Assembly: GCA_024641665.1 (NCBI GenBank)
Contig: JAHECP010000002.1
Coordinates: 28,775 to 92,774, forward strand
Length of the DNA: 64,000 bases
Direction: 5' to 3'
Source: Acidobacteriota bacterium
GTDB lineage: Bacteria > Acidobacteriota > Vicinamibacteria > Vicinamibacterales > JAHECP01
A program made the translations under genes and the position numbers. This document shows, piece after piece, positions 3,419 to 5,296 of this stretch. Positions within the stretch are counted from its first letter, which is position 1. Every line of letters begins with the position of its first letter. The notes below the pieces were generated by a model. The model was not told where the DNA came from. It worked only from the letters and a program-made list of their open reading frames with translations, and did no database searches.

Positions 3419-3546
3419 CGTTACACTTCGCGAGCGTCCACCAGGCGAACCGAGACTGCCGGCGGCCCGTGTAACGTCAGCTTCTGAAAGCTGTTACGCG
3501 CGACGCGCAAGGCGATGGGCGCTGTGCAGTATTACGTACCGTTACA
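3419..3546. promoter_or_regulatory. candidate enhancer (UAS): four TGTAACG/CGTTACA half-sites
   Basis: CGTTACA at about 3419, TGTAACG at about 3469, TGTTACG at about 3492, CGTTACA at about 3540. One arrangement is TGTAAC-N17-GTTAC. All lie between the activator gene stop and the sigma-54 promoter candidate. Confidence 0.35.
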
Positions 3547-5296
3547 CATCTGTGTTTTGGAACACCTGGCGGGATCGGAGGAACCGATAGAGCGTCGTCC
3601 GGCTCACGTCGAGCAGGCGCGCCGCCCGGGCCCGATTCCCGCCCGCGCGGCGCAGGACGTCGGCGACCCGCTCCGCGTCGAGTTTGGGGTGCCGGCCCGG
3701 CTTGGCGAGGGCCGGCGCGCGCGCGGCCGTGCGGATCTCCGGCGGCAGGTGCGCGACGTCGAGCTCGTCGCCATGACACTTGATCATCCCGAACTGGATG
3801 GCGTTGCCCAGCTCCCGGACGTTGCCGGGCCAGGGGTAGGCCATGAGCAGCGCCAGGGCGTCTGGCGTGACGCGCGCGACCCGCCGGGCCGTGTCGCCGG
3901 CGAACTTCTCGAGGAAGTGCTGGACGAGCACCGGGATGTCGCTCTTCCGATCGCGCAGCGGCGGGAGCTCGACCGGGACGACCGCGAGACGGTAGTAGAG
4001 GTCGTCGCGGAACAGACCCTGCTGGGTCCGCCGCTTGAGATCGGCGTGGGTCGCGCAGATGACGCGGACGTCGACGCGGACGTGCTGCTCGCCGCCCACC
4101 GGGATGAACCACTTGTCCTGCAGGACTCTCAGCAGCTTGACCTGCATGGCCGCCGAGATCTCGCCGATCTCGTCGAGGAAGATCGTTCCGCCGTCGGCGA
4201 GCGCGAACCGTCCCTTGCGGTCGTGGATGGCGCCGGTGAACGCCCCCTTCACATGGCCGAACAGCTCGCTCTCGAGCGTGCCCTCCGGCAGCGCGCCGCA
4301 GTTGACCGGGACGAACGGTCCCGCCGACCGCTGGCTGAGCTGGTGCAGGGCGGTGGCCACCATTTCCTTGCCGGTGCCGCTCTCGCCCTGGATCAGGATG
4401 GGGACGTTGACGTTGGTCAGCTCGCGAATCGAGTCGAACACGCGCTGCATGGACGCGTGGCGGCCGACGATGCCGCAGAAGCCACGCGTCTGCTCGAGCC
4501 GCCTCCGCAGGTGGACCATCTCGGTCACGTCGCGGAAGATGACCAGCGCGCCGGCGGCCGGCTCGCCAGGCGCCTCGGTCGTGACCACCGACATCTCGAG
4601 ATCCCGTCGCTCGCCGGCGCTGGTGACGAAGGTCCGCGGATAGCGCACCCGCGACGGCTGTGTCCCGTGCTGGCCGGTACAGAAGGGACAATCGCCGCCG
4701 CAAAACCGCTCCGGAAAGACCTCGTGACAGTCCCGGCCGATCACCTCGGCGTAGGTGAGCCCCGTGATCCGCTGTGCGGCGCGGTTGAAGAAGTAGATCC
4801 GGCGATCCAGGTCGTGCGCCAGGACGCCGTCGGTGAGGTTGTCGAGCAGCGAGCCCAGGGTCAGCCGGACCTGGTGGATCGACTCGAGGAAGCCGTACTT
4901 GAACAGGCCCTCGACGCGGTGGTGGATGTCGTCGCGGACCTCGCGGAAGATCGCGCCGGCGTCGGCTGTCGCGTCGTGCTTGTCCGGGTCCGCGAGCGGC
5001 CAGTGGATGCGCGCGGGCGAGCCCGGGAAGGTCGGGCACATCTCGCGCGCCTTGTTGCAGAGCGTCACGACGACGTCGAACGGCTCGGTGGCGACTTCGT
5101 CGAGCGTGCGCTCCACACGCGGGGCGATCTCGAGACCGACCTCGCGCATGACGCGGGCCGCCGCCGGGGCGACGTCCTGCCGGACGTCGCCGGCGCTCGT
5201 CACCTCGACGTTCCGCGGCGCCAGCCCGGCCGCGAAGGCGGCCGCCATCTGGCTGCGGCCTCCGTTTCCGGAGCAGACGAAGAGGATGCGCAGCAT
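3542..5296 (-). CDS. sigma-54-dependent transcriptional activator with an N-terminal LMW-PTP/ArsC-like domain and a Cys-rich PAS domain
   Basis: This is the C-terminal 584 aa of track ORF 3542..6577, starting MLRILFVCSGNGGRSQMAAAF (CX5R P-loop). PAS-like region: LTDGVLAHDLDRRIYFFNRAAQRITG...CHEVFPERFCGGDCPFC. AAA+ region: ILIQGESGTGKE, GAFTGA, LFLDEIGE, WPGNVRELGN. C-terminal HTH: RAARLLDVSRTTLYRFL. Confidence 0.9.
   Translation of the reverse strand: MLRILFVCSGNGGRSQMAAAFAAGLAPRNVEVTSAGDVRQDVAPAAARVMREVGLEIAPRVERTLDEVATEPFDVVVTLCNKAREMCPTFPGSPARIHWPLADPDKHDATADAGAIFREVRDDIHHRVEGLFKYGFLESIHQVRLTLGSLLDNLTDGVLAHDLDRRIYFFNRAAQRITGLTYAEVIGRDCHEVFPERFCGGDCPFCTGQHGTQPSRVRYPRTFVTSAGERRDLEMSVVTTEAPGEPAAGALVIFRDVTEMVHLRRRLEQTRGFCGIVGRHASMQRVFDSIRELTNVNVPILIQGESGTGKEMVATALHQLSQRSAGPFVPVNCGALPEGTLESELFGHVKGAFTGAIHDRKGRFALADGGTIFLDEIGEISAAMQVKLLRVLQDKWFIPVGGEQHVRVDVRVICATHADLKRRTQQGLFRDDLYYRLAVVPVELPPLRDRKSDIPVLVQHFLEKFAGDTARRVARVTPDALALLMAYPWPGNVRELGNAIQFGMIKCHGDELDVAHLPPEIRTAARAPALAKPGRHPKLDAERVADVLRRAGGNRARAARLLDVSRTTLYRFLRSRQVFQNTDV

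Follow-up and report, generated by a model that had tools for sequence, protein, structure and literature searches.

We analysed a window of 64,000 nucleotides (the whole stretch of DNA under study, to which all positions refer unless another locus is named) from an Acidobacteriota bacterium of the Vicinamibacterales (assembly GCA_024641665.1, contig JAHECP010000002.1, positions 28,775 to 92,774), with a G+C content of 69.6%. The minus strand at 3542–5296 encodes a sigma-54 enhancer-binding protein (EBP) of 584 amino acids (aa) which combines an arsenate reductase (ArsC)-like domain, a PAS domain, an AAA+ core and a helix-turn-helix (HTH), an assignment drawn from its translation, Pfam and NCBIfam matches and 39 orthologues. 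An earlier note on the same DNA had placed an open reading frame (ORF) at 3542–5296 without giving its strand; the ORF exists, and it runs on the minus strand from an ATG at 5296 to a TAA at 3544–3542. Read on the plus strand, the same interval gave an Arg/Ala-rich, meaningless frame, which was rejected. The EBP is real and rare. Our reading, to which we give a probability of roughly 0.45, is that it is a redox-sensing activator with two inputs, an OrpR-type PAS domain and an ArsC-derived thiol switch, and that it controls the redox operon lying downstream of it.

Matches to the EBP exceeded the Pfam gathering thresholds for LMWPc at residues 4–132 (59.9 bits, E = 4e-16, gathering cutoff 23.2), PAS at residues 149–257 (41.7 bits, with PAS_9 and PAS_4 also matching), Sigma54_activat (PF00158) at residues 276–442 (228.8 bits), AAA_lid_14 at residues 448–527 (90.9 bits) and HTH_8 at residues 539–571 (39.1 bits). 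The sigma-54-interacting AAA+ domain and its lid (residues 276–527) occupy 3716–4471, and the Fis-type HTH (residues 539–571) occupies 3584–3682, both on the minus strand. The AAA+ motifs are complete, with Walker A GESGTGKE, GAFTGA and Walker B FLDEIGE, and GAFTGA is kept in the orthologues. By these motifs and its C-terminal HTH the protein is a bona fide sigma-54 activator, in agreement with the earlier note, which had described the AAA+ core and the HTH as intact and had named LMWPc, PAS, Sigma54_activat and HTH_8 as the profiles to search for; all four were found by Pfam. No second ArsC-like or EBP gene was found in the window.

The N-terminal domain (residues 1–135; 4892–5296, minus strand) is ArsC-like and has the low-molecular-weight phosphatase (LMWP) fold, as judged from LMWPc, TIGR02691, Protein Data Bank and Foldseek matches. 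Its P-loop, C8-x5-R14-S15, lies within MLRILFVCSGNGGRSQ, and D103-P-D105 follows further on; the CX5R(S) loop and the later DPD had both been picked out beforehand. A relay cysteine pair of the ArsC type, TLC80-x6-C87P, had not been listed, and a HW..DP general-acid motif is also present. The ArsC catalytic set (C8, R14, S15, C80, C87 and D103) is complete in the window protein, which also has the P-loop Asn N11. Arsenate reductases were the only NCBIfam models to match residues 1–142, the best being the thioredoxin-type TIGR02691 (105.7 bits, E = 2e-30, cutoff 174.3), alongside NF010053 (92 bits, cutoff 215) and the glutaredoxin-type model (78 bits, cutoff 157.6); no low-molecular-weight protein tyrosine phosphatase (LMW-PTP) or YwlE-type model matched these residues. 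The closest solved relatives by sequence were D. indicus ArsC2 (8p5n, 75 bits) and B. subtilis ArsC (1jl3, 73 bits), and a Synechocystis enzyme and pI258 ArsC were also matched, with the arginine phosphatase YwlE reaching only 28 bits.

An AlphaFold2 model of residues 1–274, made from a 12-sequence alignment, had a mean predicted local distance difference test (pLDDT) of 78.6 and a predicted template modelling score (pTM) of 0.70. It overlaid the ArsC structures 8p6m, 1jl3 and 1ljl in Foldseek with template modelling (TM) scores of 0.79–0.86 and root-mean-square deviations of 2.2–2.9 Å. The structure prediction that had been advised for the N-terminus thus recovered an ArsC fold, and the proposed LMWP/ArsC-like identity was borne out by profile score as well as by model. 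Judged from these matches and the predicted fold, the domain is of the ArsC type rather than a tyrosine phosphatase; an LMW-PTP or arginine-phosphatase identity was rejected, as ArsC models alone scored and YwlE was weak. The mobile redox loop of ArsC rearranges upon formation of the Cys82–Cys89 disulfide. Confidence in our model was lowest at residues 81–95, and we counted this in favour of a thiol relay, since the ArsC redox loop sits there. Helices 113–133 and 136–147 link the ArsC-like and PAS domains in the model.

The PAS domain (residues 140–262; 4511–4879, minus strand) was recognised from the Pfam models PAS, PAS_9 and PAS_4, from its predicted secondary structure and from FixL/LOV-like fold matches. 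Within it, at 4679–4729 (minus strand), is the cysteine cluster C190-H-E192-x6-C199-x3-C203-x2-C206, whose members we propose as OrpR-type Fe-S ligands on the strength of their conservation, OrpR spacing and alignment to FixL. The motif had been reported with a C-x9-C spacing; its presence and its four cysteines held, but the spacing in CHEVFPERFCGGDCPFC is C190-x8-C199-x3-C203-x2-C206. The domain is weakly FixL-like by sequence, and the cluster aligns with the F-alpha segment that bears the heme-ligating His of FixL. Model confidence was low at residues 200–215.

In OrpR (DVU2106), a sigma-54 EBP from Desulfovibrio vulgaris, the PAS domain at the N-terminus carries a redox-sensitive [4Fe-4S]2+ cluster, assigned as [4Fe-4S] from electron paramagnetic resonance (EPR) and UV-visible spectra; C52, C61 and C65 are needed for sensing and a conserved Asp/Glu at position 54 is the candidate fourth ligand (PMC8359166). 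The OrpR PAS domain exerts negative control on the AAA+ domain, and OrpR is off when the redox potential rises (PMC8359166). The OrpR motif, C-x8-C-x3-C with an acidic residue at +2 (C52/E54/C61/C65), equals C190-H-E192...C199...C203 of our EBP, in which C206 is extra. This match of spacing and acidic residue, together with the position of the cysteines on the FixL cofactor segment, supports the earlier idea of a plausible metal or Fe-S site. An OrpR-type motif was present in 57 of the 148 best EBP cluster representatives from a 1.84-billion-protein library, 29 of the carriers having it near the N-terminus, as in the OrpR layout, and 26 at positions 150–260 behind an N-terminal extension; in its PAS half, then, the sensor falls into a class already known. 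By its cysteine motif, the PAS domain adjoining the AAA+ core of our EBP resembles that of OrpR, and by analogy we predict that it holds an oxidation-labile [4Fe-4S] cluster.

A search with residues 1–273 returned about 14 clusters at 90% identity with LMWPc and PAS (and Sigma54) domains, all of them metagenomic fragments; related clusters carried generic database names such as ‘sigma 54-interacting transcriptional regulator’. Scanning one genome per GTDB species gave an orthologue set of 39 loci (L003–L041) with a full LMWPc–PAS match, all in metagenome-assembled genomes (MAGs). Their hosts were Acidobacteriota, LCP-89, Calditrichota, Zixibacteria, Kapaibacterium, Electryonea, Victivallales and unclassified bacteria, and the nearest orthologues, at 74–75% identity, were from Vicinamibacterales (Acidobacteriota), which taken alone would make this order the probable source of the window. 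The earlier view that the architecture is not a standard one agrees with its occurrence in about 39 species-level genomes, all uncultured, and full-text literature searches turned up no description of an ArsC/LMWP domain as the input of an EBP, nor of the Tmc–receiver operon described below. The survey of such EBPs and their downstream genes, another suggested check, placed this redox operon downstream in about 27 loci.

Across the orthologues, C8 was conserved in 39/39, R14 in 38/39, C80 in all and C87 in about 36/38. Within the operon-linked set, S15, N81, E85, H98 and W99 were near-invariant, and C190, C199, C203 and C206 were kept in every member, so the cysteine motif is conserved among orthologues, a point on which its interpretation had been made to depend. 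Mean pairwise identity in this set was 54% for the ArsC-like domain, 63% for the PAS domain and 73% for the AAA+ core. That C8, R14, C80 and C87 should be near-invariant over several phyla at 54% domain identity was counted in favour of a thiol relay. The P-loop Asn, N11, is S, D, H, G, A, K, T, V or P in many orthologues, and the general acid D103 is Asn in about seven operon-linked members, which argues against efficient arsenate turnover. With the thiol relay and the oxyanion-binding Arg strongly selected and the turnover residues relaxed, an enzyme-derived sensor fits these data better than an efficient arsenate reductase does.

More distant relatives came from a profile search of the representative library. 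The profile took in AAA+ columns and its 228,972 matches are EBPs generally, so the top 150 were used and their N-termini inspected. An N-terminal domain was still recognisable by LMWPc in P0038 (45.7 bits), P0045 (39.7 bits) and P0050 (28.8 bits), and in P0042 it scored 20 bits, under the gathering cutoff.

Some orthologous loci had irregular structures. One Vicinamibacterales MAG carried EBP copies with identical N-termini on two contigs (L003 and L004), and the L004 copy was truncated (537 aa), the DsrM/DsrK-like pair behind it being a different one (34% identity to the TmcB-like protein described below); either paralogy of the locus or assembly noise at the strain level could account for this. 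At L010 (8001–9323, protein P0001) the EBP was fused in frame, from residue ~280 at the end of the PAS domain, to residue ~135 of the TmcB-like protein, with removal of the AAA+ and HTH regions, the small ORF, the Macro and TmcC genes and the start of TmcB; the fusion either arose naturally, by deletion at a short GI(I/V)G microhomology, or reflects a chimeric assembly. Frameshifts at L002 (10001–11748, on a 2.9-Mb long-read contig) split the EBP into pieces of 235 and 350 aa and also split several operon genes, and are probably sequencing errors rather than pseudogenes.

The operon downstream of the EBP gene lies on the same strand. Its first gene (3044–3268, minus strand; GTG start after GGAGG) encodes a 74-aa protein predicted to be a helical hairpin with invariant C35 and H60, identified by synteny. 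It is followed by genes for a Macro-domain protein of the ADP-ribose-binding or hydrolase type (2452–3051, minus strand; PF01661, 81.5 bits; syntenic in about 27 loci), for a TmcC/HmcE/NarI-like membrane protein, probably a quinone-interacting cytochrome b (1713–2459, minus strand; HmcE 48.9 bits, TmcC 48.6 bits), and for a TmcB/HmcF/DsrK-like Fe-S protein with Fer4 and CCG domains and a C-terminal receiver (REC), identified from its translation and an orthologue, which runs off the left end of the window (1–1665, minus strand). At complete loci the operon extends further, first with a histidine kinase whose two PAS domains are Cys-rich and next with a stand-alone receiver. The gene order from EBP to operon is kept in about 27 loci across the phyla listed above. 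The CCG–REC protein is 71–93% identical across phyla and thus more conserved than the EBP itself; the fusion was found in at least 120 metagenome clusters, where it is annotated only generically. No ars genes were found in the conserved operon at any locus examined, nor among the annotated ORFs of the window, and the conserved neighbours are Macro and Tmc-like genes in place of the ars context expected of an arsenate reductase.

The operon proteins scored far under the NCBIfam cutoffs of the known modules. The TmcC-like protein reached 49 bits against a cutoff of 275 for HmcE and 49 against 240 for TmcC, with a weak Pfam match to Nitrate_red_gam. A full-length orthologue of the CCG–REC protein (L008, 11677–13380), with CCG, Fer4_8, Response_reg and DVU0259-type REC domains, reached 335 against 750 for HmcF, 319 against 735 for TmcB and 243 against 400 for DsrK. 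The operon is thus related to the TmcB/HmcF/DsrK and TmcC/HmcE modules without being a member of them. Like TmcBC, HmcEF and DsrMK, it encodes a NarI-like membrane cytochrome b and a cytoplasmic Fer4 protein with CCG (HdrD-like) domains, and its DVU0259-type receiver matches the response regulators beside tmc in D. vulgaris. Unlike them, it has no periplasmic cytochrome c subunit, its receiver is fused to the CCG protein, and the Macro and 74-aa proteins are added. The heterodisulfide-reductase-like genes that had been noted downstream are therefore present, in the form of this HdrD/DsrK/TmcB-like CCG protein, and a conserved promoter of the sigma-54 type connects them with the EBP. The Macro protein was under the cutoff of every NCBIfam O-acetyl-ADP-ribose deacetylase and ADP-ribose-binding model.

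The 74-aa protein, which like the CCG–REC fusion bears only generic annotations, occurred in at least 128 metagenome clusters with invariant N6, N8, C35 and H60 and the core GVLxGTLRDxAYKLR; it had no Pfam or NCBIfam family, and a fold search returned generic helical hairpins only. At the distant locus L034 its gene is still the first after the EBP, with the remaining operon replaced by multiheme-cytochrome-like genes, and its retention there hints at a role tied to the regulator. The kinase at L008 (13486–14892), whose window counterpart would lie beyond the left edge, has the Cys/His-rich PAS motifs CYQVYKHRPEKCEEC and CKCYEIYKHRSEECYPC, with a spacing unlike that of OrpR; these may be further metal or Fe-S sensor sites.

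A sigma-54-type −24/−12 promoter, CGGCAC-GGTCC-GTGCC, was located by positional conservation at 3303–3318 (minus strand), 35 bp upstream of the start codon of the 74-aa gene (the small ORF). A GG-N10-GC element stands 49–66 bp upstream of the small-ORF start in about 26/28 related loci, for example TGGCACCGGATGTGCA (TGGCAC-CGGAT-GTGCA) in L001 and TGGCAC-GTCCT-GTGCT in L002. The candidate TGGCACGGCCCTGCA at about 3266 was rejected, as it has GG-N9-GC spacing and is the small-ORF start itself (GTG GCA CGG); the element at 3318–3303 is the one that is positionally conserved. TGTAAC-type repeats lie 100–250 bp upstream of the predicted promoter, where three candidate enhancer sites were marked on the minus strand. 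The distal site A (3523–3564), TGTTCCAAAACACA-GATG-TGTAACGGTACGTAATACTGCACA, overlaps the EBP stop codon and is a composite motif found at the same place in most related loci, where it takes the form TGTnnCAnAATACA-N4-6-TGTAAC... Site B (3471–3497) is the inverted repeat GTAAC-N17-GTTAC. The proximal site C (3413–3426), GTGTAACGAAATCC (TGTAACGAAAT-type), about 100 bp upstream of the promoter, recurs across loci, with a counterpart TGTAAC(G/A)nAAT at about −160/−168 from the small-ORF start in many of them. A degenerate form of the repeat occurred at 3.47 per kb in 28 EBP–small-ORF spacers, compared with 0.05 per kb in the remainder of the loci, a ratio that is indicative only, because the motif was defined post hoc. 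Taken together, the conserved synteny, promoter and repeats make it very likely that the EBP directly activates the adjoining operon from the predicted sigma-54 promoter.

These features allow a comparison with characterised regulators. In both OrpR and our EBP a PAS domain with the shared cysteine and acidic residues (C190/E192/C199/C203 in the EBP) stands directly upstream of a sigma-54 AAA+ domain and a Fis HTH, and the hosts of both are anaerobe-type lineages. The EBP differs from OrpR in having an additional 135-aa ArsC-like domain before the PAS domain and the fourth cysteine C206; the OrpR enhancer is GGGCGYRTTTTGCGCCC, whereas the candidate enhancers of the EBP are TGTAAC-type, and OrpR controls the orp cell-division genes, whereas the regulon of the EBP would be the Tmc-like redox operon. 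Given the different enhancer motif and regulon, the EBP is not an OrpR orthologue. PAS sensors of the NreB/FixL type likewise place a redox or gas cofactor on the F-alpha/G-beta pocket, to whose heme-His segment in FixL the EBP cysteines align, but NreB has C-x2-C ... C-x2-C type spacing and the output of these sensors is a kinase, not an EBP. The N-terminal domain shares with the ArsC enzymes (S. aureus pI258, B. subtilis and D. indicus ArsC2) the fold, C-x5-R-S, TLC-x6-CP, HW..DP and about 32% identity; unlike them, it is fused to an activator, lies outside an ars operon, falls under the equivalog cutoff, and has a general-acid Asp and a P-loop Asn that are unconserved across the EBP orthologues. 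FisR of Cupriavidus sets a precedent for a sigma-54 AAA+ activator gated by thiol chemistry: cysteines in the regulatory domain of this EBP detect sulfane sulfur (PMC12754779). The regulatory domain of FisR has neither an ArsC/LMWP fold nor an Fe-S PAS domain, and FisR targets sulfide-oxidation genes.

We propose that two stacked redox sensors gate the output of the AAA+ ring. C190, C199 and C203 of the PAS domain, probably with C206 or E192, would ligate an oxidation-labile [4Fe-4S] cluster, through which the domain would sense anoxia or a low redox potential in the cytoplasm. In the ArsC-like domain, the P-loop thiolate C8, with R14, would react with an oxidant or a tetrahedral oxyanion, and a relay from C8 to C80 to C87 would end as a C80–C87 disulfide, which thioredoxin would reset as it does in the known mechanism of ArsC. 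The rearranged 80–95 loop would signal through the continuous helices 113–147 into the PAS domain, and from there the signal would pass via the 258–271 helix into the AAA+ ring. The logic would be that anoxia or low redox potential, in conjunction with a thiol-oxidising substrate or a given state of the thiol pool, switches on a quinol-linked CCG module of the disulfide-reductase type. Architecture, fold, residue conservation, synteny, promoter and repeats were computed here; the Fe-S cluster, the disulfide switch, the direction of control and the nature of the signal are inferred. The thiol-redox or oxyanion signal that the earlier note had suggested would fit this scheme.

Several observations weigh against this proposal. 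The N-terminal domain is under every ArsC equivalog cutoff in NCBIfam, and with N11 variable and D103 replaced by Asn in about seven orthologues it is not fully constrained as an enzyme would be. Most LMWPc-like N-terminal domains of the wider EBP family are without the cysteines (for example C8 to S/G, C80 to S) and keep the PAS cysteine motif and AAA+ core; thiol chemistry is not open to the domain in those paralogues, and it can therefore work without such chemistry. The comparison with OrpR was made from published residue numbers. The physiological logic proposed for operon control is speculative.

We tentatively entertain the possibility that the ArsC-derived domain is a working catalytic sensor, its relay oxidised by a specific physiological agent (arsenate or another oxyanion, or else a persulfide or disulfide species) and re-reduced by thioredoxin, and forming with the [4Fe-4S] PAS domain a two-key sigma-54 gate for a quinol-linked CCG module with its own phosphorelay. 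If that were true, this would be the first LMWP/ArsC fold to serve as an EBP signal-input domain, and the controlled CCG module would be a previously unrecognised one, widely distributed in uncultured Acidobacteriota, Zixibacteria, Calditrichota, LCP-89 and Kapaibacteria. A rival reading, in which the EBP is a dedicated arsenate sensor with a functional thioredoxin-coupled arsenate reductase, C80–C87 oxidation as its signal and an arsenate-inducible operon, can point to the full set of C8, R14, S15, C80, C87 and D103 in the window protein, to NCBIfam matches and closest structures that are all arsenate reductases, and to ArsR–ArsC fusions among the more distant sequence matches. Yet the regulated operon has no ars genes, none is among the annotated ORFs of the window, and the window holds no second ArsC-like gene; D103 is Asn in about seven operon-linked orthologues, N11 varies, and the domain score is under the equivalog cutoff. 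An arsenate-specific role is not favoured, because ars genes are absent from the examined loci and D103 and N11 are unconserved, and we consider it improbable. Under another rival reading, the ArsC-like domain would be a catalytically irrelevant scaffold or dimerisation module, and the Fe-S PAS domain would sense alone, as in OrpR. The main argument for such a pseudo-enzyme is that about 20 related clusters at 50% identity, each with an LMWPc-like N-terminal domain, have Cys8, Cys80 or Cys87 replaced yet retain the PAS cysteine motif and AAA+ core; N11 and D103 are relaxed in the operon-linked clade too. A pure scaffold would not be expected to keep C8, R14, S15, C80 and C87 essentially invariant over phylum-level divergence at 54% domain identity, and we regard this explanation as unlikely, though deserving of attention.

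The remaining alternatives concern the chemistry of one domain or the other. The PAS cysteines might bind zinc or form a structural or redox disulfide, making the EBP a thiol- or metal-based sensor: four cysteines at C-x3-C-x2-C could chelate Zn, Zn-binding PAS domains such as that of WalK are known, and the low model confidence at residues 200–215 is compatible with this. However, the spacing and the acidic residue at +2 equal those of OrpR, where EPR and UV-visible spectra indicated [4Fe-4S] (PMC8359166), and anaerobic groups of sediments and the subsurface make up most of the host lineages; we give zinc or disulfide chemistry little credence. Alternatively, the N-terminal domain could act as a phosphatase or phospho-cysteine acceptor, in the manner of LMW-PTP or of the IIB components of the phosphotransferase system (PTS-IIB), and tie the EBP to the operon phosphorelay. 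The LMWP fold and CX5R(S) P-loop are in place and the operon encodes a kinase and two receivers, but no LMW-PTP or YwlE-type NCBIfam model matched, YwlE scored 28 bits against 75 for ArsC among Protein Data Bank sequences, and the ArsC-specific C80/C87 pair is conserved, all of which makes such a role very unlikely indeed.

EBPs are defined by what their N-terminal modules sense, and the arsenate-reductase fold is not among the described inputs. A redox-sensing EBP with an OrpR-class PAS domain is known; what is new is the enzyme-derived sensor domain and the conserved regulon. Under our two-input proposal, the EBP would be a natural example of an enzyme thiol relay recruited into a transcriptional switch, and a second independent family in support of the recently described OrpR mode of Fe-S PAS sensing. 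Within one EBP family the ArsC domains grade from intact to degenerate, which offers a case study of how a catalytic domain becomes a sensor or a pseudo-enzyme. The conserved unit of regulator, promoter and operon opens an experimental route to an uncharacterised but abundant membrane redox module, Tmc/Hdr-like in kind, of several uncultured phyla. For a specialist the surprise is one of degree, not kind, and no long-standing question is settled.

A scan of the whole window with the strict sigma-54 consensus gave 13 matches against 18 expected, no excess over chance. The sole perfect consensus in the window was TGGCACCATCATTGCT at 50086–50101 (plus strand), about 125 bp upstream of a 2-oxoacid:ferredoxin oxidoreductase gene (ORF 50225–52018; POR, POR_N and PFOR_II domains). 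As this site has no upstream TGTAAC repeats and the window has no second EBP, a different activator encoded elsewhere would serve it. An ordinary kdp potassium-transport cluster with no relation to the EBP lies at 23328–28868 (plus strand) and comprises KdpA, a 201-aa ORF, the P-type ATPase KdpB and a KdpD sensor domain with Usp. A 771-aa ORF at 17747–20062 (minus strand) had a strong coding signal (G+C at third codon positions, GC3, 0.95) and no Pfam family at E ≤ 1e-5.

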